From Takakia lepidozioides (Eukaryota; Plantae; Bryophyta), in assembly GCA_030704615.1 (NCBI GenBank), contig CM060732.1, forward strand, positions 71,548,001 through 71,612,000: a stretch of 64,000 nucleotides of DNA, read 5' to 3'. Made by a program: the position numbers and the translations under genes. Below are positions 20,400-63,288 of this stretch, one piece after another. Numbering within the stretch: the stretch's first letter is position 1; each line of letters begins with the position of its first letter. Below the pieces are notes generated by a model that saw only the letters and a program-made list of their open reading frames with translations, made no database searches and was not told the origin of the DNA.

Positions 20400-20700
20400 G
20401 CCATTTACATATTCATGAAGGGAAAAGAGGTCCATGGTGACATCATCAAGGCTAGAATAGTACCAGATGTCATTCTGAACAATACCCTTGTTGATATGTA
20501 TGCCAAATGTGGGAGCACTGTGGATGCAAATGAAGTGTTTGATAGGCAAACGAGATGTGGTGTTCTGGAGTGCTATGATTGCAAGACATGCACAACATGG
20601 ATATGGGGGATGGAGGCTTTGGAGATCTGTGAGCAAATGCACATCAGTAGGGGGTGAAGCTAGACCTAGTCACATTCATTTTTGTTGTGCCCTATCTTCA
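20400..20700 (+). pseudogene. Captured PLS-class PPR gene fragment inside the CACTA
   Basis: GKEVHGDIIKARIVPDVILNNTLVDMYAKCGSTVDANEVFD, then a frameshift to RDVVFWSAMIARHAQHGYG and MEALEICEQM. Confidence 0.88.
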
Positions 20701-26704: not shown

Positions 26705-26740
<36 letters not shown>

Positions 26741-28300: not shown

Positions 28301-28319
28301 ATTATCTCTTAATAATGGT

Positions 28320-33553: not shown

Positions 33554-33586
<33 letters not shown>
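28320..33586 (+). mobile_element. Second, inverted copy of the same LINE 3' region (28320-29489 plus ~32965-33586), interrupted by ~3.5 kb of unrelated sequence; right arm
   Basis: 28320-29489 is the reverse complement of ~27063-25926, and ~32965-33586 is the reverse complement of ~25900-25255 including the (CT)n tail. Confidence 0.88.
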
Positions 33587-33588
<2 letters not shown>

Positions 33589-36266
33589 GTGGTTGGACTG
33601 ACTGGTCCCTCCCACAGGTCGATGCTTCTCCCACTTTCGTAGTTAGATCAACACTGGTCAATGAAGGCACTTTAGAATTACCACTCTCTATTGATGGGGT
33701 CATGTATTTTCCTGACCTATGATTATGTCACCAACCGGTGTGGCTACCTGGTTGTGACCATTCTGAGCTACATGAGGAACTATTGATGTTGTTGGCACAT
33801 TGACTACACTCCTGAGTTTTGAAAATCCAAAACATCTATAGTCAGTTTCTCTCCTTGTAGTGTATTCTCATCGAAAAGTACATCTCAACTAGTCGTGATT
33901 TTCCTCTTGATAGGATCCCAGAGTCTATAAGCTTTGCTTGCCTCACAATAACCTACAAACAAGTGCTTGACACTCTTTGGATCAAACTTCTTCCGTAATT
34001 CTTTCGGGACATGCACATATGCCGTACTCCCAAAAATCCTCAAAGTGCGCAATCGATGGTTTTTTCTTGTGTCATTTCTCAAATAGAGTTTTGTTCTCCA
34101 ATGTTCTGGTAGCAGATCGATTTAGTACATACATGGTTGTATGCACTGCTTCTGCCCGGAGATAAACAAGTAACCCATTCGCATACAACATGCTTCTGGC
34201 GCTCTCGACAACTATCCTGTTGTCTCATTCAATATAGCCATTCTGAAGCGGCGTATAGGGAGCTGTGGTCTCATGCTGTATCTCTGGTTGTTGTAAGTAA
34301 TATTGAAAAGATTTTCCCATATACTCTCCACCACGATCAGTTCTAAGAATCTTGATCTCATTACCTGTTTCTGTCTTGACTTGTTTCAGCAAGACCTGAA
34401 ACACAAGAAGACATCTGACTTCTTCTTAATGCAGTAGATAAATCTATAGCCACTGTTATCATCCTTAAACAGTGCATAGTATCTAGACCCTGATGGCGAA
34501 TTGACACTCATAGGACCGCATATGTTCAAATGGAAAAATTCTCTCGATCTCTCGGATCTCTCACGATGTTTTCCTTCAAATGACAGCCTGTGCTATTTTC
34601 CAAACACACAGCCCTCACAGAGACTATCACTCATAGCATCAGTAGTAAGCTTCAATCCTTCTACCATATTCTTTTGATTCATCCTTTATATCGTTGCAAC
34701 ATTTACGTGCCCTAGTCTACAAATGCCAAACCTTCAAATCACTCATCCTTTCTGATGCTAGGTTTGCTTCAGACTCTTTGGTTCTCTCAACCAGTTCCTC
34801 ATCTCTGACATCTGTGTTCCAGTCTGTGACTACAACATTTGCTTGAGTATCATTTGGAGCTATGACCTCAATATCAAGCTTGTAAAGCTTTCTGTCCCTT
34901 CTTCTTTCCATCCCAATGTTTCAGTTTGCAAATATTCTTGCTAGAAGTAGTTGTAAGATTCTTGTCAGCAGCTTGGCCTATGGAAAAAATATTTTTCTTT
35001 ACCTCTGGGACATACAAAACATTCTTGATCGCCCCATGCTTCCATTGGTTGTTAACATGGAAGCGAATCTCAATATCACCAACACCTGCAGTTGTCGATT
35101 GTCAGCCATGTACACTGGCCAGCGCCCTCTGGGTATTTTTCTCATGGTCCTGAATCATTTTTGTTTATCAGTCATATGTTCAGTTGCGCCTCCATCAGTG
35201 AACCAAAATTCCTGATCGCGAACAGTTGAATCAATCGCGGCAAATGCTATACTCTCACTTCTATCAAGAGTTACATTGGCATGACTTCTTGATCCATATG
35301 TGATCCCCGCAGCTTCATCACGTAAGTGCTTTCCACATTCCTTTAACCAACCACAATAGTTACATCTGCAGTTCTTCTTCTTCTCAGCAATGCTGTCAGT
35401 AGATGATCGATGGTTGTAACCATGATCCCTTGAACTTGATCACGTTGGCTTCTTTAGTGCTGCGTGCTTACTGTTCTTCTTGATTTATTTTCCATCCTTC
35501 ATAAAGAATGCGTGACCACCAGTCTCTCCTTCTTGATCTGCATCATAGAGCTTTGCTCTTGCTTCTTCCTTTAACAGCTGAACTACTAGATTATCGATCG
35601 TCTGATTGGTTTCTGGAACGTTGTCCCACGCTGCCAACACATGTTTGTAGGACTGGGGCAAACTACATATGACCTTTGTCATTATTGTTGTCTCTGACGT
35701 TACTTCTCCGAGATCATTCAATTTAGCAGCTAATGACTCGATCTCGCTAATGTGATCAGCTATTTCGTCACCTGCTTTCATTTTGTATTCAAAAAACTCT
35801 TGCTGGAGGACGTGCTTATTCTCCGACACATTTTGTTCATGAGTGGCCAATAATCTCTACCCGAGTCTCTGCCACATCTGATATGCAATAACACAATCAA
35901 TCAGCCTCTGAAGGTTCTCTGATCTACAGATACACAGATGTACATCTTCCCTACATTATTTCCTTTGTCCCAAACTGTCTGTGCAACAAGTAACTCATCA
36001 GCAGAAGCATCTGGGTTTGCTAACGCTGTTGGTCTAACTGCAGATCCATCAATGATTGTCATCAATCCTTTCGCTTCAAACACAATCCTCATCTGGAATT
36101 TCCACAACTGAAAGTTTTCGCCATTGAACTTAGTTATGTGCGTGAAATCTCTTGTATCTACATTCATAGCCATCCTGACTAACTTCTGTAGATTAAACAA
36201 AAACAAGAAAACATAGTAGCATTTTCAATGTAGTGGTTTCAGTACCAAGAGTGTGGGCCCATAACC

Positions 36267-43105: not shown

Positions 43106-43993
43106 ATGGCCGGCGACGAGCAGCCCCCCCCTCCAGTTTCCTCAGGCGGTCCCCCTGATTGTGGCCTCCCCCCCCCCCCCCCCCCGTCTGTTTCTTTGCC
43201 TGATCCGGACGTTGTACCCCCGGCTGCACCTCCGACATTACATCCTCAATCACCTCCACTTTCATCTCCTCCGCCAGCAGTACCACCTCCACCTCCACCT
43301 CCACGTGCATGTGCCCCTCGAACCCCTAGGAGGGGTCGGCTTCGCCCTAGGTTTCCTCCCCTTCGGCTTGGGCGGCCTGAGCCGAATCCTCGCCCCCGAT
43401 GGGAAGCGCATAGGACTATGTTATTGAGGACCGTCCAACCTCGTTGTTAGGGGAATCATCTCGACCCTCCCACCCCCATCCGAGAAAATGTGGAGTTCGA
43501 GTATTGGGGGAGACGGTATGTTGTGAGAGCCGCTACAGACCCTGCTATGGGTCGGGGTTTATTCACGGTCAATGATATTGTGGTTCCTCCTCGGAGAAAC
43601 AACATGGTGGACTTGTTTCTCTACTACGGTCCATACTATACCTCCGCGGAGTTCCGTACATTACGCCTCGAAGCCCCATACATCCTACCCTACATTTTGT
43701 GTGTCAACGGACAGGATGTACGTAGACGGGGGTTGTCTCCCATTGAAATCAGATTTTGTGATGGTGACCCCGACATCTTCGACAATGTTGCTGGGCTAGT
43801 CAATAGTTCTTTTGGTCATCCTAGGAGAACCAATGTAGTATGGGACGAGCGAAGCGATGGGCATGAGAGCTTTTGTGGTCATACGTCAATATACTGTGAG
43901 AGGATGCACATGTTTGTGATGATATGTGCTAGTAGGACTATTAGGGCTGGTAGCGAACTATTTGCATCATACGAGTTTTCCCGGGATGATTGA
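43106..43993 (+). pseudogene. SET-domain (protein lysine methyltransferase-like) gene with Pro-rich N-terminus and one in-frame TAG at 43448
   Basis: MAGDEQPPPP...RC*GNHL... is in frame with ORF 43490-43993, which has MGRGLF (motif I), YYGPY, DGD...NVAGLVNSS (RFxNHS-like) and ASRTIRAGSELFASY (ELxxxY). Confidence 0.72.
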
Positions 43994-44251
43994 GACCTCC
44001 GAATACAGCGTGAGTGGGATGTGTATGATAGAAATAGGGTTCCTTTGAGACAGGGATCGCGTAGAGGGGCATTGTAGATATTCTCATGATGTACTTTGTA
44101 TACATCCGATTAATCGATTGATGTAAAAAAATTTCTTTGTTGCTCGTGTGGGTTGCAACTTTGCATATGTGATCTAAACATACTTGTGCACATGTGGACC
44201 AAATATGAGCTTGAACCAAGTTGATTCAATGGGTCATTCTAGTGTTGAACG

Positions 44252-44947
44252 TGTCGTGCGCATACATATCGCTACACAACTACATCGCTGTCCAAAACCA
44301 CACAACACATGTGCACACCACACACTAGTATACCACTAGTCCACCACTAGTCCAGCCACTAGTCCAACCACTAGGCTACAACTAGTCAGTCACTAGGCTG
44401 CCACTATGCTGCCCACTATGGCAGTCACTAGTCCACACAATGATAAAGAAGAAGAATACAAGCACAAGCTCATGCGAGCTCACAAAGCTGAAGCATAAAC
44501 TCATGCATATATAACCTCATCACTCAAATACAAGTCAAGCCAAGTGCACCCCACGCCATGGGGAATCCACACTATGGCGCCATAGCTAGGCGCGGTGAGG
44601 CTCAACTCGAGAAAGATGAGCCTCCCGCGCTTGCCGTGAAGATAACCACTCCAGGGCCTAAATCTGCCTGGACCCCTGGATTGACACTTGGGCCAATCCC
44701 AAATGTCAATATGTAAAAGCTAGCTGTTTCCTAGCTAGTTTCACACTAGTGGTAAAATAACTTGACAGCTGTCGTGCGCATACATATCGCTACACAACTA
44801 CATCGCTGTCCAAAACCACACAACACATGTGCACACCACACACTAGTATACCACTAGTCCACCACTAGTCCAACCACTAGGCTACAACTAGTCAGTCACT
44901 AGGCTGCCACTATGCTGCCCACTATGGCAGTCACTAGTCCACACAAT
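44252..44947 (-). repeat. 3' repeat block Y-gc-X-Y (sense order)
   Basis: 44252-44441 matches 44770-44947 apart from one 11-bp indel in a CCACTAGT microrepeat. 44441-44767 matches 55480-55806 (327 bp, 3 substitutions seen). Sense polypurine tract AGGGGGGCG at 44956-44948. Confidence 0.95.
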
Positions 44948-45205
44948 CGCCCCCCTAGCTGGTGCTTAGGTCCCTCTAAGTCTAGGTAGCCACACGATGT
45001 GATAGTGACCATAGCCTCACTAAGTCCTCCACCACTATCCCTACTACACTCAAACTCGATAGATCAAGAGGCCGGGTGCAAGAGTTGCCCCATCGTTAGT
45101 CGCCGTCTTGCAACCTGTGAACTTGAGCTTGGGATCTCATGTATTGACTCCTATGAGCTTGGCCTCCCATGTCTTGTTAGCTGCCTCCAGTCATGTCCAC
45201 TGCCA

Positions 45206-48200
45206 CTATCCCAAGCAGTGTGGACACAACCAATCTCTGTCAGGAACCTTCTCAAGAGGTGGTGTCACGCATCCCATATGCCAACCCCTTGAACATCGAT
45301 CACACACCAGCATGGTGGCTGCCCCTTTGGCAGACCCACAGAGCATGCACCTCAAACCTGCAGGTACCACTGCCAAGTTTGGGTCAACTCTGCCATCGAC
45401 ATTGGGAAGGTGACATGGCGCACAATTACGCACATGGTCCTTCCAAGTCATGCCATCCCGACCCTCCAAGATCAGGACCCCTGAGGGCAACACCTCTCGA
45501 ACCCTCATAATAACACGCCCTGCAGTAACATCCAGAGTCGTAAGAGCAGTCTGCTGCAAATAAACATAGTCACCAGGGCTAAACCTCCGAACCCCAGGAC
45601 GATATCCTCCACCACGTATAGTGGCATACCTCAACGTATCACGGTGCTGTGCAATGGCAAGGTTCTCAAAAGCCATGGGCATGACTTTCTTGAACAACTC
45701 TGCACGCTGATTACATGCACGTACCCACACGTCCGGATCGTCAAGGTTAAGGACTTGAGCAGTGTCCCTACGAATGGCTGCAGGCAAATCCGGCTCTCGG
45801 CCAAAGAGAAGGAAATATGGTGAGAAGGAGGCAAGTGATGCTTGTTTGCTGAACCTGTAGCCCATGGCTAACCAAGGAACCTGAAGATCCCAATCTCCTA
45901 GGTGTCCCTTCTGCAAGCCATACTTGCGCAAACCCCTCTTCACCGTCTGAACAACTCTCTCTGCTAAGCCATCGGCCTCAGGATGATCCCGAGAAGTGGT
46001 GCGGTGGTCTATCAAGGCTTTATCACACAAAGCCTGAAACTCCCCCAAGAACTCTCTCCTTTGGTCCGTGAGTACCTCAGCTGGAGCACCAAATCGGCTA
46101 AGCACACGATCCAAGAATGCATACGCAGCCCCCTCACTAGCCTTGTCAGGCAATGGAACCAACTCAATCCACTTGGAGAAGTGCTCCACCATCACCAACA
46201 CATATCTGTGGTGGCGCATAGTCAGTAGCAACGGTCCTGCGAAGTCAAGACTCCACCTGTAGCCCAATCCCATGATTGGTAAAGGATGCAACTGTGGTGT
46301 AGGGGCGTTGAATGAAGCACGCACCCTGTCACACACCATGCACCTAGCCACGAACTGTTGCACCTCTGTATGCATACCACGCCACCAATACTGCCCCTGC
46401 AGTAAACTGTGAGTGCGTCGCACTCCAAAATGCCCCAACTCCTCATGGGCATGCCGCACTAACCGTGCACGCTGTGTGGGGTGAGGCACAATCCTTACCC
46501 GACCATCCTCCCACACTCGAAGTAGGTGTATCCCCTCCCACTTGAACCTCTTGGCTCGTTGCAGGATCCGATCCCTCTCCCTGGCAGTCACAATGGCTGC
46601 TGTGTCTCCCGTGCGGAGGTAGTCCAACACAGCCGAATCCTCATCATCACTAGCCTCAGGGTCCTCAGACACTCCATCTACAGTCATCCCTGTTGTAGGT
46701 CCAATCTGACCTCCCGATGCCAAGATACACAAAAATGCAGATGCGTGCCATCCCGGCACCATCTCCTCGTCCGTCTCACCATGCCACCGAGCTCCAGTGT
46801 CATCCTGCTGGCTCATGCATGGATTGCGACTCAATCCATCCGCATCCCGATTGACCAAACCCGGTCGATGCACAACCTGAAAGTCATACTCCTGGAGTAT
46901 AAGTGCCCACCGTGCAAGCTTCCCCGTAAGCTTGTCTGACTCCATCAACCACTTGAGTGGCTGGTGATCCGTGACAAGGGTGAAAAGATTGCCGTATAGA
47001 TAGCACCTGAAGTGTGCCACGGCCCACACTGCAGCTAAGCACTCTCCCTCATATGAGCTGTACTTAGCCTCTGCAGCGTTGTTCGAGCGGCTAGCGTAAG
47101 CCACTACGAACTCTCTTCCCTCATCATCCACCTGTGTGAGTACCGCTCCAAGCCCCAGCATGCTCCAATCCGTATGCAGCTGAAAGGGACGCCCCCTGAT
47201 AGGTCGTCTCAAGATAGGCGCCGAGGTCAACCTCGCCTTGAGCTCTTGAAAAGCTCGTTCCTGCTCATCTTCCCACTGCCACTCCTGGTCCACCTTGGTC
47301 AGCTTGGTTAGAGCCTTTGCAATGGTACTAAATCCCTTGACAAACCGTCTATAATAGTTTGCCAACCCCATGAAAGCTCGAACTCGGCTCACATCCGTGG
47401 GGCGTGGAATTTGTGCAATGGCCTCTACCTTAGTCTGCTGTACCCCCAATCCTCCAGGATATATCATGTGACCCAGATACTCAATCTGGTTGTGGAAAAA
47501 CTTGCACTTCCCCGGATGCAACTTCAATCCGTGCGCTCTCAAGCGCTCCAATACCACCTGAAGGTGTCTCTCATGCTCCTCCATCGTAACACTAAAGATG
47601 ATGATGTCATCTATGTAGCACCGAGCAAAGTCCACCCCTGCTAGAATCTTATCCATGACTCTCTGAAACTCTGCAGGAGCATTCTTAAGCCCAAATGGTA
47701 AGAACCGCCACTGATATAGGCAATCCTTGCCGTGCTCATTGATCCCCCAGAATGCCGTCTTCTGCTTGTCCGCCTCCTTGATTGGCAACTGGTGATATCC
47801 GGATCGTAAATCCAAAGTGCTAAAGGCCTTAGCATGCCCGATGGCATCAAAGATCTCCTCTGGTGTTGGCATGGCATACTTATCGGACTTGGTCTGACGA
47901 TTTACAGGCCGGTAATCACCGCACATACGTCTCTTCGTCCAATTGCCATAGACATCCTTCTTGGCTGGCATCACTGTGGCTGAAGCATACTCTCCACCAG
48001 AGAGCTCCACCAAACCTGCCTCCCAGAGATCTTGAGTCCTCATCTGAATCAAAGACCTCTCCATGTCAATGTATCTATAGGGTCTCCGAAAGATTGGCGT
48101 GTCAGTGGCCAACTCAATACGGATCTCTTGACCCTTCAGTGCTCCCAAGTCCTTCAAACTGAAGGCAAAGCAATTCCTGTAAGCCCTCAGGAACCGCCGT

Positions 48201-48316
48201 ATACGTCGTCTCTCTCCTCCGGTGACAATGGGTCCAATGTCAGGCTCCCAATTGTCCTCCGTAACTGCAACCTTAAGTCCAGTGGGCTTAGAGGTAGAGG
48301 ACGCGTCCAGTGGTTG
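45206..48316 (-). CDS. Pol: reverse transcriptase, RNase H, integrase, PHD finger (uninterrupted frame)
   Basis: RMCGDYRPVN, LDLRSGYHQ, LPFGLKNAP, YIDD; LHTDWS...YEGECLA...TDHQPL; HEELGH...CMVC, WSLDFAG, LTDQ, DGLAER; C-terminal CMLC...LVCDRC...WHMGC...WLCPHC (C4HC3). The frame is open from the codon after TAG 48319-48317. Confidence 0.96.
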   Translation of the reverse strand, partial: QPLDASSTSKPTGLKVAVTEDNWEPDIGPIVTGGERRRIRRFLRAYRNCFAFSLKDLGALKGQEIRIELATDTPIFRRPYRYIDMERSLIQMRTQDLWEAGLVELSGGEYASATVMPAKKDVYGNWTKRRMCGDYRPVNRQTKSDKYAMPTPEEIFDAIGHAKAFSTLDLRSGYHQLPIKEADKQKTAFWGINEHGKDCLYQWRFLPFGLKNAPAEFQRVMDKILAGVDFARCYIDDIIIFSVTMEEHERHLQVVLERLRAHGLKLHPGKCKFFHNQIEYLGHMIYPGGLGVQQTKVEAIAQIPRPTDVSRVRAFMGLANYYRRFVKGFSTIAKALTKLTKVDQEWQWEDEQERAFQELKARLTSAPILRRPIRGRPFQLHTDWSMLGLGAVLTQVDDEGREFVVAYASRSNNAAEAKYSSYEGECLAAVWAVAHFRCYLYGNLFTLVTDHQPLKWLMESDKLTGKLARWALILQEYDFQVVHRPGLVNRDADGLSRNPCMSQQDDTGARWHGETDEEMVPGWHASAFLCILASGGQIGPTTGMTVDGVSEDPEASDDEDSAVLDYLRTGDTAAIVTARERDRILQRAKRFKWEGIHLLRVWEDGRVRIVPHPTQRARLVRHAHEELGHFGVRRTHSLLQGQYWWRGMHTEVQQFVARCMVCDRVRASFNAPTPQLHPLPIMGLGYRWSLDFAGPLLLTMRHHRYVLVMVEHFSKWIELVPLPDKASEGAAYAFLDRVLSRFGAPAEVLTDQRREFLGEFQALCDKALIDHRTTSRDHPEADGLAERVVQTVKRGLRKYGLQKGHLGDWDLQVPWLAMGYRFSKQASLASFSPYFLLFGREPDLPAAIRRDTAQVLNLDDPDVWVRACNQRAELFKKVMPMAFENLAIAQHRDTLRYATIRGGGYRPGVRRFSPGDYVYLQQTALTTLDVTAGRVIMRVREVLPSGVLILEGRDGMTWKDHVRNCAPCHLPNVDGRVDPNLAVVPAGLRCMLCGSAKGAATMLVCDRCSRGWHMGCVTPPLEKVPDRDWLCPHCLG

Positions 48317-49620
48317 CTATGTTGCAACCTCTTGAGCAGTACTCCCTGCCTGCTCAGTCAATGACAAGGCCTCATCCTGCCCCATCATCTCATCCTTGAG
48401 GACCTCCTCAACCCGAGAAGAATCCCCAACCTCATCCATCACAGCCGCCTTGGCTGCCAACTCCCTCTGAACCTCGAGCACCTCCCACGTGTGCCATGGA
48501 TGCATGCACCCCGTGGTCCTCACATGCTCGCCCCCACTCACTGCCTGTACCGTCTCGGTAGGCAGAGAGACCATTGAGGGAAGTGTACTCCGCACTCTGC
48601 GTTGCTCAGCCAGAGCCAAGCTGATAATCCAGGTCAAGCAATTGAGATCCATTGCTTGCCCCAACACTTGACGACGTGATGCCTCAGAAAGAGACGACAC
48701 CGCCGTGGTACCAGTGGTAAAACCCATTGCCCGCTCACGCTCGTCAGCATTAGGCTCCACTAACTGCTGCAACTGAGCATCCCACAGGAGGCCAGGTCCA
48801 CTATCCCGGAAAGCATGCGATCCTGGGAAGCTGAGCAGTGTAGGTAATGCTGCTCGTGGTTGACCCACCTTGTTGACCACTGCCAAAGGCGAACGGTCAT
48901 CGTGTCTCACACGTTGAGACTGCCTCCCTGTGTCCAGAATGTTATCCACTGTGAGATGTGCTGGCCGCTGCACCCCATCAAATGCACGCTTGAGCAGTGC
49001 GGGTGGCATCAAGTTAGTCCACCATAGCCGTGGACGATGAGCCCGTGACCCCACTGTAGCTGCATCTAGCAACACTGCTGACCCAAGCCACGACCGGACT
49101 TGATGCACACTGGCCATCACCCTGGCCCAAGAATCGCCCATCAGTGGCACATTCTCCAAGATGTATGCTGGAGATACAGCTTGATGAAGCTGCAAGTGGC
49201 GCAAAACCCGCACCATCTCCCAAAACAGACCCGACCTCGAGTCTCGCAATCCATTGCCATGCCCGGCTGATGAATGCCCTTGGCAGGGCCAACCTGCCAC
49301 TACCAGATCAATGGAGCCAACCCGCTCCAAATCCTGCGCCCCCAGCAACGAAATGTCTCCTGGCAAGGCCTGCTGATATCCACGAATTGCAGACACCGAC
49401 AACAACTCAGGGTATCGCTGCACCAACTGAGCAACATGGCGAAGTGAAACGCGTCATGCAGTCTCATCCCTCTCCACATACAGGTAACGCCGAACTCGTA
49501 AACCTGCTTGTAACACAGCAGCCAATCCGGTGCTGATCCCGCCAAACAAGTCCAGAAGACAAATGCCTTCATCCGGATACTGCCACACAATAGGTGTGGT
49601 GTCCAATGGAGACAATTGAG
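48317..49620 (-). CDS. C5-cytosine DNA methyltransferase domain, DNMT3-like, within the polyprotein (one premature TGA at 49454)
   Basis: Motif I LLDLFGGISTGL, II YLYVE, IV DLVVAGWPCQ, SGLFWE, VI YILENV, VIII AHRPRLWWTN, IX ERERAMGF, X RRQVLGQAM, in canonical DNMT3 order. Confidence 0.93.
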
Positions 49621-52270
49621 GTGGTCTGGTGCAATCCCCACACTCTCTCCTCTCCTGACGGTACAAAAGCCTCCACCCAGGCTTGTTGCACCTGTCGATC
49701 AGCATCCTGCTGCAAATCCTTGCTCGTGCCCCACAATGGAGTCTGAGCAACCATGGTAGGCAACTCCGCCATACCATACATGTCATCCTGCTCTCCCGGA
49801 GGTGGTACATCCTCTGAATGACCATTGCCCTCAAGCAACTCTCTAAGCCAACTCACTGCCGCTGTGAATGCTGCTAGTGTCGGCATCTTGCCTCGCTGGG
49901 CAACCGCAACTCCTCCTATGAACGTCACAGGGAGCTGCACACGCCGGCCCTCCCCTGACTGCCATGCAGGCCTATAGGAAGCTGACTCTTCCCAAAAATC
50001 CAGGGTGAAGCCCATGGGGTACAACACTGCCCCACCAACCAGGACATCGTATGAGACTGCGTCTGTCACAATGGCCTTGGCTCGCATCACTGAGCCATCT
50101 GTAGGGTGATCCGGTCGTAGTCTGATAGCCAACTCATGCCGTGTCATGCCCCGACCCTGCTCCGATCCTCCCAGAGACATCTGTATCTGGAAAGGACAAG
50201 GCTCCATATCCGCCTCCGTGAGGCCCAAGCCTGCTATAGCAGCTCTGCCCAGCATCAATGGCTGAGCTCCCGAGTCCAACAAGACCCGCAGTGGCCGGTA
50301 CCTCTTGCCTGCCGGTCCACTCAAACAGAAAATGCCATCCTGGTTGTCTAACATGACAACTCCAGGTGTCACCATGGCGCGCTCAATGGCTGGCCTAGCT
50401 GGCAGCTCCATCAACCTGGCAGCTGCAGCTTGCCATGGCGCCGCCGTGGCAGTCTTGACCCTCAAATCCGAGGATCCATCCGGCACTACACCTCCCACTA
50501 TCTCCGCAGAAGATGAAGTAACCTCCCCACTCTCACAGAGTGTAGCTGCCAGCCTGAACACCTCAGCTGGTCTTATCCCCGGCGTCGCAATCATGGTAGC
50601 CGAGAACAATGGAGCCTGGCACACAGATGTGGCCGCTCCTAACAGCACACTAGCTGCCGTAGCCTTGGCAACACTAGGTAGTGGTGCTACCCGTGTAGCT
50701 CTCCCCAATGGCATAGTAACCTCCGCCTCGGTAACAGTCGGGCGAGAACTAGGTGCCATGGATGGCGTCGACACTGTCTCCGCCAATGTGAATGACTGAG
50801 GAAGCCTAGCCTGACGGCTTGCCTCCCCACGCTGTGGATCCAACTCCACCTCTGCACCTCGTGGCTCAGGAACTCGTGCTGCTCCTCGAGTCACGGCTGC
50901 AGCAGACTCCACCTGCACTAGTGGTAGTGCTGCTCCACACATGAATCCCATGCCTCCCATATCTCCTCCCTCAGGAGCAGGAGGTGGACCATCCGGCCTT
51001 AGAGCCGGTACCACCTGAGCTGTAGCCATGGCAGCGAGCCTCTGCTCTAGCTGCTGAAGCCGCTTGGTCATGCCTTGGTCAACACCCTGACCTCCGCGTC
51101 CTTGGCCACGTTGAGCTTGCCCTTGGCCTGCACCTCGTGGCTGGCCACCTCGTCCTCTCTGGGCTGCTCCACCTCGCCCCCAGCCACCATTGTTCCCTTG
51201 GAACTGGCCTGGGTGCAACTCAGGATGCAAACCATAACACTGGGCCTCTCCATGCCCGTGCTTGCCACAATGCCCACACTGCAACTGTGCAGGCTATGCA
51301 TGTGCCAGCCCTTTGCCTCCCTCTAGGCAATCCTTCTTGGCATGGGGTCCTCCACATGTCTAGCACACCACATCCGCCCGTTGTTGGCCAGCAAATGAAG
51401 GGAGAGACCCCTGCATCTGAGGTCCTCTCTGCCCTTCCCTGAGCTTCACCTGAGCCCCCTTGTTGCCTTGAGCACGTTGAGGTAGTGGTTGGCTAGGAGC
51501 ACCACTACCCCGTGGTGTCTCCTTAGCAAATCCCACCATGACCACTCGTTCCTCCACCATGTTGAGCTCTATCCGCTCTGCCAGCAAAAACACATTTGCT
51601 AAGGTGGGTTGGGCCACTTGTAGGAGAGTTGCATCCTGCACCCTTCTCCTCAGCTCCTTGTCCAATATCCCATACCAGAATTGGACTGCCTGAGCTTCCG
51701 TAACCCCTTGGGTTACATTTATCAAGCGCCTCATGCGAGTGAAAGCTCTCGGTCGGCTTCCGTTGGAACTCTTGCAAGCTCCGCAACTTCTCTGTCCTCA
51801 CCCCTTGGTAGTTCCCTCTCAACTCTTCGAAGAACTCCACAACAGGGTTGAAGGCAGGCACGGGTGCTAGTGCTGGTGCGGTAGTGGCTTGGGTGGACGT
51901 CGTAGCTACTGTACCACCAGTCCCACTGCTACTTGCTGAAGCTGCCGGTGCAGCGGCATGTGTAGCCACTGCCCTCGTGGCTCTAGTGCCCCTAGTGATG
52001 GAGATATAGTCGGGTGACCAGTACATCCTCCACTCCTCGATCTCAACCTCATGCCCCCGCCTGAACTCATGGTAATCATCCATAGGCGGCCCCTCAAGGT
52101 GCTGAAACAGCCCTTTCCATGCCATGAAAGACGTAAATAGTTGTGGATTGCGCATTTGCTGCAAATCACACCAACTATCAAACTCTTGGATAAAATCATC
52201 CAACTCGATGGTGCCCACCGCCCCAGAGTACCTTCGTGGCCCCTTGGTAGCTCCATACATCTCCTCCATT
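49620..52270 (-). pseudogene. Gag (two CCHC knuckles) and aspartic protease, disrupted
   Basis: RYSGAVGTIELDDFIQEFDSWC, knuckles C*TCGGPHAKKDC and CGHCGKHGHGEAQC, protease VLLDSGAQ...YDVLVGG. Frameshifts near 51745 and 49650 and two in-frame TAGs near 51360 and 51294. Confidence 0.88.
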
Positions 52271-52769
52271 GTGTCCCACAACAATGGCAAAGAAACAACT
52301 TGCACCGCCGGTATGAGTCCTCCTGATTCACAATCCGAATCAGAACCTTCCGTGGAAGACACAGGAGGTGAAGGTGGCCTAAACCGTACACCTCGTCTCG
52401 TGTACCCACTAGTATCGCTAGTGCTCGAACCGGCACTGTCCCCAGCAACTAGTGGCACCTCCGTGTTGACACTCAACCGATCATGAACATGTCCCTAACC
52501 CCCTCTCCACAAGGTAACCGGGTAGAGAACCTGTTGCGGCTTATGGTTTGGAATACTAAGTTCCTAACATAGCCTACACCTGTACTTGCATGACCATGGG
52601 AATATCATGAAGATACTCCTCAAACCGCCCTCCACGAGCTTCAAAATTCGGCCTTCCAGACCACATGCCAGTCCTTAGGCAGTCCACCAGTGCCTCCACG
52701 AGTCAGCACAGGCCGTCCACAGGTCAACACGGGCCACCACAGACCAGCACAGGCCCACACAGCTCACTG

Positions 52770-53950
52770 GTCACAGCCGTCACAGTCCCACAGGCCACTG
52801 GGCACAGCCTGTCACAGCCCCAAAGCCTCAGGCACGGCCTGTCACAGCCCCTCACAACGCGTCACAGCCTCAAAGGCCTCAGGCACGGCCCGTCACAGCC
52901 CCTCACAGCCCCTCATAGCCCCAAAGGCCTCAGGCACGGCCCGTCACAGCCCCTCACAGCCCCTCACAGCCTGTCACAGCCCCAAAGGCCTCAGGCACGG
53001 CCTGTCACAGCCCCTCACAACGCGTCACAGCCTCAAAGGCCTCAGGCACGGCCCGTCACAGCCCCTCACAGCCCCTCACAGCCCCAAAGGCCTCAGGCAC
53101 GGCCCGTCACAGCCCCTCACAGCCCGTCACAGCCTCAAAGGCCTCAGGCACGGCCTGTCACAGCCCCTCACAGCCGTCACAGCCTCAAAGGCCTCAGGCA
53201 CGGCCTGTCACAGCCCCTCACAGCCCGTCACAGCCTCAAAGGCCTCAGGCACGGCCTGTCACAGCCCCTCACAGCCCCAAAGGCCTCAGGCACGGCCTAT
53301 CACAGCCCCTCACAGCCCGTCACAGCCCCAAAGGCCATGGGCACGGCCTGTCACAGCCCCTCACAGCCCGTCACAGCCTCAAAGGCCTCAGGCACGGCCT
53401 GTCACAGCCCCTCACAGCCCCTCACAGCCCCAAAGGCCTCAGGCACGGCCCGTCACAGCCCATCACAGCCCAAAGGCCTCAGGCACAGCCCGTCACAGCC
53501 CGTCACAGCCCCAAAGGCCATGGGCACGGCCTGTCACAGCCCCTCACAGCCCGTCACAGCCTCAAAGGCCTCAGGCACGGCCTGTCACAGCCCCTCACAG
53601 CCCGTCACAGCCTCAAAGGCCACTGGGCACAGCCCGTCACAGCCCCACACAGCCCGTCACAGCCCCACAGGGCACAGGGCACAGCCTGTCACAGCCCGTC
53701 ACAGCCCCAAAGGCCACTGGGCACAGCCTGTCACAGCCTGACACAGCCCGTCACAGCCCCACAGGGCACAGGGCACAGCCTGTCACAGCCCATCACAGCC
53801 CATCACAGCCTGTCACAGCCCGTCACAGCCCCACAGGCCACAGGGCACAGCCTGTCACAGCCCATCACAGCCCATCACAGCCTGTCACAGCTTGCGACAG
53901 CCCGTCACAGCCCGTCACAGCTCGCTACAGCCTGTCACAGCCCCACACAT
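52770..53950. repeat. GC-rich minisatellite (TCACAGCCC core) in the Gypsy leader
   Basis: Nested 10-12-bp units (CCCGTCACAG, CCCCTCACAG) combined with AAAGGCCTCAGGCACGG into variable higher-order units. Confidence 0.95.
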
Positions 53951-55479
53951 GGCCGCTCTGGCAGTTTAGCCATTTCTCCAAGGGGTTTAGCCACGCCAAG
54001 CTAGGGTTTGTGTCTCTTGGACTCTAGGCTTCTTTCCACCGAGCTATGGTGGCTGTGAGGAAATCAGCAAGGTATCCTTGCTCTTTCGGCTCCCACACAC
54101 CACCATAGTAGCCCTAAGCCATGAGGTGGTTGCCACAAACCAAGCCTTCTTTCTCACTTAGCCTCCCCAAACACGCCACTAAACTCAATGGCAAACAACC
54201 AAGCCCTGCTGGTTCCCAGCCCTTGTGAGCACTCATTCAAGCACTCTCATTGGCCATAGCATCTGTCTTAGAGCCTATTCCAGCCCTCTACACCTGTTGC
54301 TTCAAGAGTTGTGTTCCCTTCAAGCTTGAAGTTGAAACCCCAACTCACATAGGCCCTACAAGTGCTTTTCTTTCACTCCAAGTGGAAACCAGCCCTAGAC
54401 CTTCCGTTCTAGCTCTCTAAGGCTTGAAAACAAGAGCCTCAATGGGCTGAAGGCATGCTCCATACATGCCCCACTCTCACCATAAGAGAATCAGCTCCTT
54501 TGCTTCATTTCTTGCACCCACAAACCTGAAATTACAAGCTTCAGCAGGCTGAAAGCATGCTCTACATGCCCTACAGGGTAACCAGCCCCTTCCTTCCTTT
54601 CTTGCACTCCCACACCTAAAAGTGCAAGCCTTCACCAGGCTGATAACATGCTCCACACATACATTGCCCTCACATAAGGGAAGTCAGCCCTTCCCTCTTC
54701 CTTGCTTGCTCTCCAAGCTTGAAGATGGAAGCTTCAATGAGCTGAATACATGCTCCACACATGCAACCTCTTCACACAAGAGATATCAGCCCCCTATCTT
54801 GGCTCCTTGGCTCTTTGATGCTCTCTAAGACAAGACTAAGCACTCCACAGCCTTTGCCAAGCTCCTGAAACCCTAAGGCTTACATTTCCAGCCACAAGAC
54901 ACTTCTCTTGTGGTGCAAGAGCTCTTCTTCCAAGCTCTGAAACCCTAGGTGCACATTCCATGGCCTTGCCGCACCTCTTAGCTCCTGTTCCAGCCCTGCT
55001 CTTGCCATGACAAGAGCCCTCTCAATGCTGAAGCTCGAGATTGAAACCCAATCTCACCATACTCCACAAAGTGCATTGATTTGCCCCAAGCCAAATCAAC
55101 CCTTTCGCTTGGTCTTGCAATCCTTCACACAATGGAAGCTCGCATTCCCAGGTCCAGTTCTCAACTTTGCCACCAAAGCCACTATAACCTGCACTTGACT
55201 GGTCCTCTTCCCAATCGTGCTTGCTCATGCATGTACACAATCTGAAACCATCAAGGTGCTCTGGAATTACCTGCAGCATGGTGCTTTCATCTCTGAAGCT
55301 GAAGATCGAATGCCAAGGTCTACCACCTCGTAACCCACATCGCCTCCGCTTCTAACAACCAAGAGCTCCATGGTGCTCCTTGCATAACAACTTGGTTTCT
55401 CTCATTCTCAAGCAAAAACCACAAGTGTTATAACTAACTCGTATCTGGCACTCACAGATACGAGCTGATCTTTCTCGAG

Positions 55480-55806
55480 TGATAAAGAAGAAGAATACAA
55501 GCACAAGCTCATGCGAGCTCACAAAGCTGAAGCATAAACTCATGCATATATAACCTCATCACTCAAATACAAGTCAAGCCAAGTGCACCCCACGCCATGG
55601 GGAATCCACACTACGGCGCCATAGCTAGGCGCGGTGAGGCTCAACTCGAGAAAGATGAGCCTCCCGCGCTTGCCGTGAAGATAACCACTCCAGGGCCTAA
55701 ATCTGTCTGGACCCCTGGATTGACACTTGGGCCAATCCCAAATGTCAATATGTAAAAGCTAACTGTTTCCTAGCTAGTTTCACACTAGTGGTAAAATAAC
55801 TTGACA
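55480..55806 (-). repeat. 5' terminal repeat X of the Gypsy element
   Basis: 327-bp near-identical copy of 44441-44767; sense begins TGTCAAG and ends TTTATCA. Confidence 0.95.
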
Positions 55807-56613
55807 AACGCAGCTACGTATCATAGAGACGGAAAATTGCGTTTTTTTTTTAATTCCATTTTCAAGCCATATGCTTAATGATAGCATATGCAATGTGCGT
55901 GCAAAATTTGGGAGTAAACAAAAGTCATTTGGACCCATAACCAGATTTTGTTCTCTCATTTGCACTCCAAAGTTGAGTTATTTTCAACTTTATGCACTCT
56001 TCATAAAGAGTTTTGCAAAAGTGACCCTAGAAATACACTTATTTTTTTTCCATTTTTTTTTTGTCCAATGTTTTGCATGGATGTAGTGGTGCAAAAGCCC
56101 GATGTCATACAACAGAATAGAGCTAAAAATAAAATCATTACGCCCCTCAAAACCGCAATCATATATTTTCTAAATGCAAATATTTATTTTAAATTCATTT
56201 AAATTCGATTTAATTCAAAATTGGTGCAAGGGTGAGTGCGTCGTTGGGGAGGCAAATGTTTTTTTTTTTTTTTGTTTTTTTGTTTTTTTTTTAAAAAAAA
56301 TTAATTAAAATTTTTTTTCTGTTGGATCTTTGTACAGGTGTTGCACACATATTTAAGCACATGTAAGAAAAAATGAAGCTTGAGCCACATCCGTTTGTTG
56401 GGTGCAATGGCATGAGAGGATTTTTTTTCACATTAATAAACAAAAATTGGTTGATAGGGTGAATGCGTTATTGGGGGGCAAATGATTTTGTTTGGGTTTG
56501 AAACTTTGCATATGTGTATGTTGCGCACATACATGTAATTATTGAATGACATATTTGATGCACACACACATTGAAGGTTGTTGTTTGCATTTCGCTTATA
56601 ATGAAGTGTATGG

Positions 56614-57471: not shown

Positions 57472-57704
57472 GTGAGGACCACGGGGTGTAGACATCCATG
57501 ACACACATGGGAGGTGCTCGAGGTTCAGAGGGAGTTGGCAGCCAAGGCGGCTGTGATGGATGAGGTTGGGGATTCTTCTCGGGTTGAGGAGGTCCTCAAG
57601 GATGAGATGATTGGGCAGGATGAGGCCTTGTCATTGACTGAGCAGGTAGGGAATACTGCTCAAGAGGTTGCAACATAGCAACCACTGGACACGTCCTCTA
57701 CCTC
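57472..57704 (+). mobile_element. 233-bp diverged fragment of the same Gypsy family (DNMT-RT linker)
   Basis: Colinear with the reverse complement of 48291-48523, with scattered substitutions. Confidence 0.93.
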
Positions 57705-58957: not shown

Positions 58958-60632
58958 TTACTCACAGGCAAAGTCGGAGTCCAGCTCCTTGTCGGAAGTC
59001 TCCCCTGTATCAATATCACCGAGAAGGGGCTTCGGAAGGATTTGAGAAGTGTGTCCACCCAAACCCATCAGGAGGTTCTTGTAAATCTCGGCATCCCCTT
59101 CAATCCCAAAGAGATGTTGCGCACTAGCCTTGCAAGCGTGGTACAAAGCATCTGCAGTGGAACAGAATGAAGAAAACAGACATTGAAGACACATTTGGAA
59201 CGGTGGGAAGTTATGAAAGTGCAAGCTCAAACAAAAACCTCATGAAATGTGAATGTTGAAGAGACGAACCTGTGCCCTTTGACAAATCCAGAACTCTAGC
59301 GTCTGTGTAGGTGCAGCACTCCACAATTGTTTGAATGAAAGCCGAGCTCTTCTCCCTCGCCCCTCTCCAAGGAACCCCATTCCCCCTTCGCAAGCACACG
59401 TTGCTATCGACGTAGTTGTGGTGCATGTCATCCGTGGGAGGATCTGTCCTCTCGTCTATGAACTTGCCCCCATGAGTGATGACGAACTCCGGAATGATGG
59501 CCGGAGTCGTAGGTGGATGCACTCGGACGAGACAAACAGTTTCAAACAAACGAGTCTGCGAACAGGACATGCACGAGGAACTAAGAAGCTCCAAAACCAG
59601 GCCCCAACATATGAGTTTGAGCGACCTATACAACTCCATCCAAGAACCAGCAAGAAGAGGAACAAGAAGGCAAATTTACCATCTCTCCCAGACGATCCCC
59701 CTTCGTCAGGTACATGTTGTTCACACAATTCCATGTCTTCACGACCCTCATACCGGAGGCTTTCAAATAGCTGGCAAGTGCACGGCGACAGTGAAGGTCG
59801 ATGGACTGGATGAGCGCCAAAACACCTGCATCGCACAGATATAAATTGCAAAAGGAGAAAACCCACTGCCAATAGCGTTCATCAAAAGCATTCCAACCCG
59901 GACAAGCACCCGATGGAGGGACATCCGGAACTGGCAACCCATCAGGGATGTCCAAGATGATGAGTTCGGCTGCATATGGCTTCTCCTTCCCGTTTACCCA
60001 GGATTTGGTCATTTTAGCCTGCAAACAAGAATACAATGGAATGCTCAAGAGGATTGAAATGATCCATGCCCACAACAGACAAGAAGCAAAAGACAACACG
60101 CACCGTGCCGAGGAACTCCACAATCCTCTCCCACACTGGTGATGGCTTGCCCTTGTAATCAGATTTCTTGGACTCCATCATGGCAAGGAACCTGATGTTG
60201 GCCATCTCCAACCTGGTAGGGCGAATGACCCTCGTGGGATGTTCCACTGCATGGTACGGGTCCTTGGGATCAACCACCCCCTTGTTCTTTCTCCCGGATC
60301 CCTTACCATGCGGTGGAGTCTGCTGGACATGCACCACAGGGCCAGGTTCTGCAACACTTCCCTGCCCACCTACCTGCCCTTGTGCCCCTTCCCCTACCCC
60401 TTCCTTTCCCCACACCACCAGCAACATCTTTTCCCTTTGCATTTCTACCTCTACCCGGGGTATCCTGAGCGGGAGGCTCCTTCTCTGCAAGAGTCCTCAA
60501 ATTTCTATCATGAATGTCGAGGTTGGCTGCTGCGGCGGTGGCTGCTATACGCTCATTCTCTCTCCTCAAAGACACCTCCTGAGCTGGGGTCTCAGAAGGA
60601 GGGCAATCCAAATACCATGGGAGTTTTGACAA
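58958..60632 (-). pseudogene. Spliced beta-class N6-adenine/N4-cytosine DNA methyltransferase-like gene. Exons ~60632-60104 (one frameshift), 60018-59680, 59555-59270, 59151-58958
   Basis: Three phase-consistent GT-AG introns join AELIILDIPDG (motif IV position), W...FCNLYLCDAGVLAL, EKSSAFIQTIVECCTYTDARVLDLSKGT (motifs X-I) and ALYHACKASAQHLFGIEGDAEIY (motif II). This IV-X-I order is that of the N6_N4_Mtase family. Confidence 0.68.
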
Positions 60633-60689
60633 CTATGGGAGTTTTGAGCATGCATACTGGCCCTGTTAGGCCCAATTTCACATAGAAAA

Positions 60690-62990
60690 ACAAGCACGAA
60701 TGGGGCTCAAAACAGTGTGCATTGCCGCACACTGTTTGAGCTTCCAATAAGGGTTGGATTCAACCTGCCAGAGTGGCCCCAGGGGACCGATTTTCAAATC
60801 AAAAGCAATCACATAAGGAAGCTCAAACAGTGTGCGTTGCCGCACACTGTTTGAGCTTCCAATAAAGGTTGGATTCAACCTGCCAAAGTGGCCCTAGGAG
60901 ACCGATTTTCACATCAAAATCAATCACGTAAGGAAGCTTAAACAGTGTGCGTTGCCGCACACTGTTTGAGCTTGCAATAAGGTGTGATTTTAATATGGCA
61001 TAGTGGCCATAAGTGGCCAATTTGAAATAAAAGAAAAGGCAGTGAAGGGGGCTCAAACAGTGTGCGTCGGCGCACACTGTTTGAGCTTCCATTTTGGAGT
61101 CGAATGAACTTGCCAGACTAGCCGTAGGTGCACAATTTCCATATCCATAAACAAGCAAATCAGGGGGCTCAAACTGTGTGCGTTGACGCACACCGTTTGG
61201 GCTGCCAGGTAAGTGTGAATTGAACCTGACAGAGATGACCTTTGTGGTCGATTCTAAAATGCCAGCTGCCAGGTAAGTGTGCATTGACGCTCAAAGAGAT
61301 GCCCTATGTGGCCAATTTTCAGATAAAAAAATTAATGACATGGTGGGCTGGAACAGTGTGCGTTGACGCACACTGTTTGAGCTGCCAGGTAAGTCTGCAT
61401 TGAACCTCAAATACATGCCCTATGTGGCCGATTTTCACGTGAAAAAAACAATGACAAGTTGGCTCAAACAGTGTGCGTTGACACACACTGTTTGAGCTGC
61501 CACGTAAGTGTGTATTGAAACTCAAAGAGATGCCCTATGTGGCCTATTTTCAGATAAAAAAAACAATGACATGGTGGGCTGGAACAGTGTGCATTGACGC
61601 ACACTCTTTGAGCTGCTAGGTAAGTCTGCATTGAACCTCAAATACATGCCCTATGTGGCCGATTTTCACATGAAAAAAACAATGACAAGTTGGGCTCAAA
61701 CAGTGTGCGTTGACGCACACTGTTTGAGCTGCCACGTAAGTGTGCATTGAAGCTCAAATAGATGCCATATGTGGCCGATTTTCAGATTAAAAAAATAATG
61801 ACATGGTGGACTCGAACAGTGTGCGTTGACGCACACTGCTGGAGCTGCCACGTAAGTGTGCATTAAAGCTCAAAGAGATGCCCTATGTGGCCGATTTTCA
61901 AAAAAATAAAATAAAAAATAAATAAAATAAAAAACATGGTTGGCTGGAACAGTGTGCGTTGACGCACACTATTTGAGCTGCCAGGTAAGTCTGCATTGAA
62001 CCTCAAATACATGCCCTATGTGGCCAATTTTCACATGAAAAAAACAATGACAAGTTGGGCTCAAACAGTGTGCGTTGACGCACACTGTTTGAGCTGCCAC
62101 GTAAGTGTGTATTGAAGCTCAAAGAGATGCCCTATGTGGCCGATTATCAGGAAAAAAAAAAAAAAAAAAAAAAAAACATGGATGGCTGCAACAGTGTGCG
62201 TTGACGCACACTGTTTGAGCTGCCACGTAAGTCTGCATTGAACCTCAAATACATGCCCTATGTGGCCGATTTTCACATGAAAAAAATAAAGACATGTTGG
62301 GGTCAAACAGTGTGCGTTGACGCACACTGTTTGAGCTGCCACGTAAGTGTGTATTGAGGCTCAAAGAGATGCCATATGTGGCCGATTTTCATATAAAAAA
62401 AAATAATGACATGGTGGGCTGGAACAGTGTGCGTTGACGCACACTATTTGAGCTGCCAGGTAAGTCTGCATTGAACCTCAAATACATGCCCTATGTGGCC
62501 AATTTTCACATGAAAAAAACAATGACAAGTTGGGCTCAAACAGTGTGCGTTGACGCACACTATTTGAGCTGCCACGTAAGTGTGCATTGAAGCTCAAAGA
62601 GATGCCTTATGTGGCCGATTTTCAGATTAAAAATATAATGACATGGTGGGCTCAAACAGTGTGCATTGACGCACGCTGCTGGAGCTACCACGTAAGTGTG
62701 CATTGAAGCTCAAAGAGATGCCCTATGTGGCCGATTTTCACATGAAAAAAATAATGACAAGGTGGGCTCAAATAGTGTGCGTTGACGCACACTGCTGGAG
62801 CTGCCAGGTAAGTGTGCATTGAACAAGAAAGAGATGCCCTATGAGGCCGATTTCCAAATGAAAAAAAGAATGACAAGGTGGGCTCAAACAGTGTGCGTTG
62901 ACGCACACTGCTAGAGCTGCCAGGTAAGTGTGCATTGAAACTTAAAGAGATACCCTATGAGGCTGATTCCAAATGAAAAAAACAATGACA
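60690..62990. repeat. About 116-bp tandem repeat, ~19 units, each with a 34-bp palindrome
   Basis: CTCAAACAGTGTGCGT-TG-ACGCACACTGTTTGAG recurs (for example near 60707, 60822, 61463, 61695, 62060, 62884), and the intervening sequence is also repeated. Confidence 0.96.
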
Positions 62991-63288
62991 AGATGCACAA
63001 CACAACCTCATTACATTCGGGGTCTTCCTGTTTACTGCTCTCTAGGGTTGTTGTCGTCTTTCCATAATTGATGGTTTCATGTCATGTTTAGGGTTTGTTT
63101 TTCATCCAAATACAACACGGCTTCTTGTGGCTTCTTGTCACCCTAAACAGTTTTTCTGATTGGTGTCTCTCAGTGTGGTTGTCTGCGAAGTTCGGTGCAT
63201 GTCATTCCTACATCCTTTGCAGGCATCGCCCACAGTCTTTGGGTTAGTGCTAACCTTATTGACCTCAGTTTGGTCAGTGGAGGAAAAC

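Follow-up and report, generated by a model that had tools for sequence, protein, structure and literature searches.

The methyltransferase-bearing element and its anatomy

Analysis of a 64,000 nt stretch of the Takakia lepidozioides genome (contig CM060732.1 of assembly GCA_030704615.1, positions 71,548,001 to 71,612,000; hereafter the window, to which all positions refer) identified a Ty3/gypsy retrotransposon on the minus strand that carries a DNMT3-like C5 cytosine methyltransferase (DNMT) and closes its integrase with a PHD finger (Table 1). At 11.55 kb, the element extends far beyond the interval 45206..49620 in which an original prediction, made from the sequence alone, had placed a retrotransposon polyprotein with both domains. 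The motifs named in that prediction, a C5-methyltransferase set between protease and reverse transcriptase (RT) and a C4HC3 PHD finger at 45349-45215, were all found in place on the minus strand, and Pfam matched both domains above its curated cut-offs (DNA_methylase, E 5e-13; PHD, E 4e-10). The PHD finger also occupies the position of a chromodomain, as had been proposed, since it lies at the integrase C-terminus and a Pfam match to Chromo is absent. The description as a single polyprotein holds only by way of read-through, with a stop codon at 48317-48319 splitting the DNMT from the RT.

Table 1. Parts of the Takakia element, listed from its 5' to its 3' side
Feature	Position	Strand	Remarks
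Target site duplication, 5' side	55807..55810	-	CGTT
Whole element, A1-internal-B1-GC-A2-B2	44252..55806	-	Ty3/gypsy, 11.55 kb, TG...CA ends
Repeat A1	55480..55806	-	327 bp; putative distal U3 + R + U5; self-priming complement at 55656-55645
Self-priming primer-binding site	55468..55479	-	immediately follows A1; 12 nt, fully complementary to a segment within A
Tandem array	52803..53943	.	10/51-bp units; 5' untranslated region
gag	51237..52269	-	two zinc-knuckle-like motifs; assigned by position and likeness to the N-terminus of relatives
Aspartic protease	50050..50370	-	DSG at 50276 (LDSGA 50279); weak Pfam match, E 0.055
DNMT3-like C5 cytosine methyltransferase domain	48596..49570	-	in-frame stop at 49454-49456 in the window copy
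Leaky stop signal TAG-CAA-CCA	48311..48319	-	ends ORF1, in frame with RT; TAG at 48317-48319
Reverse transcriptase and RNase H	46871..48100	-	YIDD at 47617; Pfam
DDE integrase	45371..46480	-	HHCC, intact D-D-E, GPY/F-type motif (45823), C-terminal tail
C4HC3 PHD finger	45206..45355	-	closes the pol ORF; cysteines 45349-45215
Polypurine tract	44948..44962	-	directly before B1
Repeat B1	44770..44947	-	putative proximal U3, CA at end
Perfect palindrome GACA-GC-TGTC	44764..44773	.	B1/A2 junction; putative integrase attachment site
Repeat A2	44441..44767	-	
Repeat B2	44252..44441	-	B1 plus a 12-bp tandem unit; A2/B2 joint is the putative join of two cDNA ends
Target site duplication, 3' side	44248..44251	-	CGTT

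The assignment to Ty3/gypsy rests on the order gag, protease, RT, RNase H (RH) and integrase (IN), a Ty3-type RT, a DDE integrase, TG...CA termini and a short target duplication. The best PDB match of the RT region was Ty3 Gag-Pol (E 2e-94), and the RT-RH-IN frame that the PHD finger closes comprises 1,036 codons. The gag region matched no gag family in Pfam, while the protease of a relative (L018) gave a Pfam E value of 2e-4. One feature of the group is missing: in place of two complete terminal long terminal repeats (LTRs) there is a repeat A at the left end and the series B-A-B at the right. The identity and anatomy of the element as described here are near certain.

To judge from its sequence, the window element is a full-length, young and now dead copy. 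One frameshift and two stops break its gag, the stop at 49454-49456 cuts the DNMT, and the frame shifts relative to the protease near 49.6 kb. At that stop, 97–100 % of the depth differs from the window copy in the contigs of four runs, and most differ at the frameshift as well; the breaks are therefore not traits of the family. Within the repeat bounds, which were drawn from a self-comparison of the window, A1 and A2 differ at three of 327 positions (0.9 %) and B1 and B2 show no substitution, with the 12-bp tandem unit as their sole difference. This near identity of both pairs indicates a young insertion. An empty site with a single copy of CGTT was present in eight contigs of run X1 (loose end 44251, joint 44250-55842). 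The family is abundant in the host, with 145,112 X1 contig records matching a 13-kb stretch when all identity classes are pooled, a figure that is not a copy number.

A 233-bp fragment of the linker between DNMT and RT of the same family, 96 % identical and on the strand opposite to the element, lies at 57472-57704 (+). Just outside the element, the repeat that hosts the insertion holds a 180-codon SET-like open reading frame (ORF) at 43451-43990 (+), for which the Pfam match to SET was below the cut-off (E 0.023) and a PDB search gave no support.

Distribution of related elements

A search with the DNMT yielded 70 relatives, among them 15 gene models of Marchantia polymorpha and one protein each of Calypogeia fissa and Sphagnum fallax; Hariotina was also found through this search. 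The combination of integrase and PHD finger retrieved 116 further proteins, 111 of them with a PHD finger, from hosts that included Coleochaete scutata, Volvox and Tetradesmus. Neither search brought up a sequence named as Klebsormidium. Two arrangements were distinguished. In the first, to which the window element belongs, the DNMT lies between protease and RT; in the second, it lies between RH and IN. The second accounts for 19 of the 70 DNMT relatives and 43 of the 116 integrase relatives, and is the one found in the named chlorophytes.

The window DNMT nests with sequences of Calypogeia and Marchantia (support 1.0). In the RT tree, the clade of the window element (0.92) stands apart from 56 other elements, a set without Tcn1, Chlamyvir, Phygy and Selgy references. 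The grouping with liverwort sequences, together with a neighbouring DCD gene whose named matches are Riccia and Physcomitrium, agrees with the expectation that the element is a land-plant member of its kind. This DCD gene lies at 3903-4520 (+), and its best named matches, in a search of proteins longer than 317 residues, were Riccia (55–56 %) and Physcomitrium (45–48 %), behind one unnamed protein. By themselves, these matches and the DNMT tree would point to a bryophyte host, most likely a liverwort.

The Marchantia models Mp4g09160, Mp8g17980 and Mp6g11220 correspond to the first ORF (ORF1, Gag-protease-DNMT) of such elements, and one of the 15 Marchantia ORF1 models (P0003, P0004, P0007 and 12 more) bears the UniRef name "DNA (cytosine-5)". 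Clade members L097, L098 and L099-L102 come from prokaryotic genome bins, including a Synechococcales bin (CAA9586175.1), and are most likely eukaryotic contamination.

The DNMT domain is an old component under selection

The DNMT motifs I–X run in linear order, including DLFGG (49552), YVERD (49480, with the glutamate of motif II in the region of 49474), GWPCQ (49294), LENVP (49159), HRPR (49039), ERERAMG (48742) and GQAMD (48661). Structure work was carried out on an open natural relative, L002, which is 69 % identical to the window DNMT. Its best PDB sequence match was human DNMT3A (E 1.6e-11), and its fold was predicted with a pLDDT (predicted local distance difference test) score of 95. 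The model was closest to DNMT3A/3B with both Foldseek (E 8e-21) and VIA-align (Z 29.5 versus 25.7 for M.MpeI). Linear motif order and closest likeness to DNMT3A/B place the domain in the DNMT3 family. An Atlas search returned generic C5-methyltransferase clusters only, and IMG/VR held no relative of the DNMT and only distant integrases.

The catalytic residues are strongly conserved, with the cysteine kept in 98 and the glutamate in 100 of 103 DNMT sequences and the arginine in nearly all. The ratio of non-synonymous to synonymous substitutions (dN/dS) of the DNMT was 0.09–0.17 in six pairs of diverged relatives; RT, RH and IN gave 0.02–0.04 in the one pair that was measurable throughout. Among decayed copies within one family the DNMT ratio was 0.38–0.64; comparisons that involved the window copy were at saturation. 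Trees of DNMT and RT-RH were reconstructed with FastTree (unrooted, FastTree support, without host DNMT3 or Klebsormidium sequences). In the 40 elements that have a DNMT as well as RT-RH, each of the 15 DNMT splits supported at 0.95 or higher recurred in the RT-RH tree with no conflicts, and each tree separated the two arrangements. Low dN/dS and agreement between the trees indicate that the DNMT is old cargo of the family; its presence throughout the family and the congruent trees, drawn up without host DNMT3 sequences, rule out a nested host gene or a recent capture. None of the outcomes that would have counted against the prediction was thus observed.

Some members have altered or incomplete domains. 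Motif IV reads EC instead of PC in 37 of 53 sequences of the second arrangement, and in P0238, from Volvox reticuliferus, the N-terminal and catalytic region is missing. A branch without DNMT (L099, L101) is nested in the second arrangement, and L101 has a complete frame of 2,152 codons.

A predicted read-through stop separates DNMT and RT

A stop of the form TA(G/A)-CAR-YY in the RT frame, 67–74 codons 5' of the RT, was present at 29 of 35 loci with DNMT followed by RT (window included), although repeated assemblies of some six families make up many of these loci. As background, 17 of the 1,522 TAG triplets in the window precede CARYY. Conservation across loci excludes mere decay as the origin of the stop in the window copy. 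The arrangement is clearest in L018, in which an open Gag-protease-DNMT frame leads through the motif into 1,047 codons of RT-RH-IN-PHD. The motif resembles the read-through consensus of tobacco mosaic virus, UAG-CAR-YYA (PMC3159437).

With a leaky stop after it, the DNMT would be made at the level of Gag, and RT and IN-PHD would be minor products. As far as the reading frames indicate, the DNMT is thus likely to be produced with Gag and packaged in many copies, a layout that makes methylation of the element's own cDNA more plausible.

The PHD finger belongs to the integrase

The eight zinc ligands of the PHD finger are kept in 123–124 of 124 sequences. The nearest solved PHD fingers in a PDB search were those of CHD4, KDM5B, ATXR5, KDM5A, PHF21A, BAZ2 and UHRF1, a group (KDM5B, ATXR5, PHF21A, CHD4, UHRF1 and others) that we take to read histone H3 lacking trimethylation of lysine 4 (K4). 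PHD fingers of the ING/BPTF type, which read trimethylated K4, have an aromatic-cage tryptophan two residues before the zinc-binding histidine; this position is glycine in 123 of the 124 sequences, so the fingers are not of that type. Readers of unmodified H3 of the BHC80/AIRE/KDM5B type have an acidic residue just before the first cysteine. Only 46 of the 124 PHD fingers have an aspartate at -3, and the window copy is not one of them.

The presence of the PHD finger on the integrase does not depend on the DNMT: the finger is kept where the DNMT lies upstream, where it is adjacent and where there is none (111 of 116 integrase relatives; the DNMT-free L101). The prediction had drawn a parallel with the pairing of ADD and catalytic domains in animal DNMT3. 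This analogy fails because the finger stays with the integrase wherever the DNMT lies and even when it is lost; it ends the integrase some 1,080 codons downstream of the DNMT, across the leaky stop. From its sequence context, the finger is best read as a tether of the integrase rather than as an analogue of ADD, and PHD-guided choice of target, which its position makes plausible, is rather probable.

Permuted LTR and inserted ends

The primer-binding site and the polypurine tract delimit an LTR of the form B-GC-A. None of 5,000 shuffles of A reached the 12-nt complementarity of the window primer site, and the same self-priming layout was found in L023 (16 nt), L018 (15 nt) and L097 (12 nt). 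The inserted ends of the element do not coincide with the ends of this LTR. They fall within it, at the palindrome GACA-GC-TGTC, of which the two spacer bases have been lost. The inserted ends thus show that integration took place at an internal palindrome. The A2/B2 joint unites the end defined by the primer with the end defined by the tract, with a 1-nt overlap in the window element, one extra base in L023 and precisely in L039.

The complete layout of A, internal region and B-A-B framed by a target duplication recurred in L023 (AAGG) and in L039/L044 (one mismatch), and its 3' B-A-B half in L098. Copies with A, internal region and a single B had an exact 4-bp duplication in L007, L026 and L048. 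Within a copy the A and B pairs have diverged alike (7.7 % and 6.2 % in L023; 10.9 % and 10.6–12.5 % in L039). A palindrome following a G-run was also present in distant members of the clade, the other DNMT arrangement included (L018, L025, L042, L046, L050, L051 and L097-L100). A scan of 28 clade loci placed it within 3.5 kb of the pol end in 12 and farther out in L051; four loci end at B1, seven have less than 650 nt of downstream sequence, and a match in L101/L102 was discounted as a junction. The latter, GACA-GA-TGTC, has no G-run and lies 15 nt past the PHD finger. Among 70 other integrase-bearing loci, scanned over 1.5 kb rather than 3.5 kb, one fitted a loose palindrome pattern, with the G-run absent.

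A hidden tyrosine recombinase was rejected; scans of 14 ORFs from the window element and of the L018 and L101 ORFs gave no match (short and decayed frames lay outside these scans). The units of the tandem array at 52803-53943 contain TGTCAC, the letters of the attachment half-site of many relatives, which may reflect chance or decoy sites.

Proposed replication cycle and alternative explanations

On balance, we favour a reading in which a Ty3/gypsy element with a DNMT, a PHD-bearing integrase and a permuted LTR likely inserts from a circle and likely methylates its own new DNA. Ribosomal read-through of the TAG at a few percent would supply DNMT to each particle at the level of Gag and keep RT and IN low. 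Ordinary LTR-type reverse transcription, self-primed, would then yield linear DNA with a B-GC-A LTR at each end. Joining of the ends would give a two-LTR circle, in which the integrase would open one CA-NN-TG palindrome, lose the two spacer bases and insert the DNA as A-internal-B-A-B; copies of the form A-internal-B could come from one-LTR circles or from later recombination between B1 and B2. The DNMT, released by the protease, would methylate the naked cDNA, probably at CG, so that the copy arrives marked, and the PHD finger would tether the integrase to H3 tails without K4 trimethylation and so bias insertion towards non-promoter chromatin. Retroviral (foamy virus) integrase is known to cut palindromic LTR–LTR circle junctions (PMC1180852), and a DNMT3 carried by a DIRS element methylates CG in yeast (PMC5890265). 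Insertion from a DNA circle is probable, and self-methylation of the cDNA stands at about even chances. We offer only tentatively the wider idea of a green-plant-wide lineage, present in Marchantia, that integrates solely from circles through a mid-LTR site. Its co-evolved DNMT3, packaged at the level of the capsid protein, would methylate the circle ahead of insertion and may choose which palindrome is cut.

Several observations weigh against this reading, in addition to the redundancy of the loci with the stop motif and the shorter outgroup scan. The strict viral read-through consensus is matched in full at nine of the 29 loci, while 20 deviate at the final base and seven have TAA; the motif is missing from six loci, including the divergent family L039/L044/L047 and L056/L057. 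No palindrome was found in L045 and L056, which have more than 3 kb of downstream sequence, and the A2/B2 joint of L098 has no clear match and is without the CA found where A ends in the related L097. If the circle had two equal palindromes, insertions of the form A-B-A-internal-B would be expected as well, but B precedes none of 11 distinct left ends. For the DNMT, the branch without it retains the palindrome and the PHD finger, which makes the enzyme dispensable for the cycle. No signature of self-methylation was found in CpG and CHG counts of the element, the CpG ratio of which (0.52) equals that of the window background (0.55). The corresponding enzyme of KnitGypsy-Dnmt3, an element of the alga Klebsormidium nitens, gave no methylation in yeast, a result that its authors call inconclusive (PMC5890265).

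The layout of the repeats might arise without a closed circle, if an end-to-end jump of RT added a second B to the right end of linear cDNA and the integrase processed internal palindromes on both sides. This would fit the one-sidedness of the copies, with four loci showing a 3' B-A-B, and the overlapping, extended and precise joints are what a jumping RT would be expected to leave. Host end joining yields such joints too, however, few complete copies were sampled and an extra asymmetric step is required, so that we regard this route as rather unlikely. Replication of the PAT/Ngaro type, in which a transcript that runs from A1 to B2 is copied into a circle with the internal B1/A2 junction as the splint for its ends, would also account for a one-sided layout. 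The order of repeats is identical to that of such elements (PMC6681497; PMC5890265), but that route has no use for a polypurine tract that abuts B1 exactly or a self-priming site that does the same at A1, and the intact DDE residues, the 4-bp duplication and the lack of a tyrosine recombinase in the 14 scanned ORFs make it quite improbable. That the layout is an accident, from a solo repeat inserted at one end or from misassembly, might be entertained for a family with many copies, many of them rearranged. A single duplication frames the whole unit, though, the empty site exists, and the layout is repeated in L023, L039, L098 and the Klebsormidium element (PMC5890265), which leaves this explanation very improbable.

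For the enzyme, the alternative to self-methylation is a DNMT whose target is not the cDNA of the element: it may methylate chromatin or RNA of the host in trans, or have a non-catalytic role. The inactivity of the Klebsormidium enzyme in yeast (PMC5890265), the absent CpG signature, the loss of the DNMT in one branch, the truncated Volvox member and the replacement of the motif IV proline by glutamate in the second arrangement would all suit such a role. Retention of the catalytic cysteine, glutamate and arginine, a predicted fold like the DNA-binding fold of DNMT3 and the placement in the Gag polyprotein, which favours packaging, argue the other way; we consider this alternative possible but doubtful. 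A reader–writer unit of PHD finger and DNMT that methylates the insertion site, after the manner of animal DNMT3, would draw on their shared frame after read-through and on nearest PHD fingers that are presumably ADD-like in ligand. It is unlikely, given that RT, RH, IN and the leaky stop intervene and that the finger is independent of the position or presence of the DNMT. In a looser version, the two domains may ride together in one pre-integration complex, and the RH-DNMT-IN-PHD arrangement brings them closer.

Other features of the window

Nested inverted duplications (82–94 %) with RNase H and chromodomain matches at 25278-33558 are probably two opposed retroelement copies. Remnants of Copia-type RT and gag lie at 24321-24980 and 35488-35856 (-), and satellite arrays at 60571-63061 and 20687-22436 are made up of units of 116 bp, which contain a palindrome, and of 171–181 bp. 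A host gene at 9394-10707 (-) has exons that resemble a plastid small heat-shock protein by eye, with no Pfam match.

Implications and comparison with known systems

DNMT-bearing retrotransposons have so far been known from dinoflagellates and one charophyte. As 15 of the 70 relatives are Marchantia polymorpha models, the role of the enzyme in their cycle can be addressed in a genetic model with methylation mutants, and the read-through layout predicts a high abundance of the DNMT in the particle. From the permuted LTR it follows that LTR retrotransposons can integrate by way of an attachment site inside the LTR. The simplest substrate for this would be a circle, usually deemed a dead end. Software that searches for LTRs as a pair of equal terminal repeats would overlook the lineage or misplace its borders, and through its ORF1 the number of DNMT genes in bryophyte annotations is inflated.

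The window element is a land-plant variant of the KnitGypsy-Dnmt3 kind, which was described as an event of the K. nitens lineage (de Mendoza et al. 2018, PMC5890265) and in which Pol contains a DNMT3 and the repeats are DIRS-like. The two share Ty3/gypsy domains, a DNMT3-like domain in Pol that is intronless, not rearranged and under purifying selection (Ka/Ks <0.2 in KnitGypsy-Dnmt3) and split repeats of the form A...B-A-B, a layout left unexplained in the passages of that paper. KnitGypsy-Dnmt3 was presented as a single-lineage acquisition, whereas the present clade spans liverworts, moss, Coleochaete and chlorophytes and has two DNMT positions. The available text of PMC5890265 mentions no PHD finger, no read-through and no mechanism for the repeats; the two elements are compared here by their descriptions. 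Methylation of cDNA was proposed there for DIRS elements with a DNMT. A 2025 follow-up (PMC12344493) cites the DNMT elements of streptophytes and dinoflagellates from de Mendoza et al., and "KnitGypsy" occurred in one paper in a literature search. Passages of 10.1101/363937 and PMC6453930 contain nothing on element-borne DNMTs. In titles and abstract openings, a scope with subscription papers, theses and Repbase outside it, no land-plant DNMT-Gypsy element, read-through in one or DDE-based mechanism for split repeats was found. The host enzymes PpDNMT3a/b of non-flowering streptophytes share the DNMT3-type catalytic domain and linear motif order with the element but have a C-terminal DUF3444 (PMC6453930), for which a Pfam match is absent here.

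The PHD finger alone is not new in Gypsy elements, as Gypsy-7a_cRei and other Chlamydomonas elements also encode one in their polyprotein, for which a part in target choice has been proposed, and show an intergenic bias; unlike in the window element, a DNMT is not among the domains listed for Gypsy-7a_cRei in the available text (PMC9940879, PMC8557442). PHD fingers are known broadly in transposable element fusions (10.1101/2021.11.30.470311). The chromoviruses Tcn1 and Tf1/Sushi are likewise predicted to use self-priming instead of a tRNA and have a chromatin reader at the integrase C-terminus, and Tcn1 has moss and club-moss hosts (Neumann et al. 2019, PMC6317226). Their reader is a chromodomain, whereas the window element has a PHD finger, a permuted LTR and a DNMT; the accessible text of that survey does not mention a PHD finger or methyltransferase.

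The repeats resemble those of PAT, Ngaro, VIPER and TATE elements, which have the order A1...B1-A2-B2 with an internal copy of the joined ends (PMC6681497). Those elements carry a tyrosine recombinase, while the window element has a DDE integrase, TG...CA ends, a 4-bp duplication, a polypurine tract and a self-priming site. DDE enzymes also act on abutted ends in the circle junctions of IS3/IS911. The integrases of foamy virus and HIV open a palindromic CA-NN-TG junction of abutted ends (PMC1180852), as is proposed here. In these circle junctions the site that is cut is the join of the true ends, whereas in the window element the cut would fall at a templated palindrome within the LTR, and the inserted copy would retain the joined true ends in its interior.

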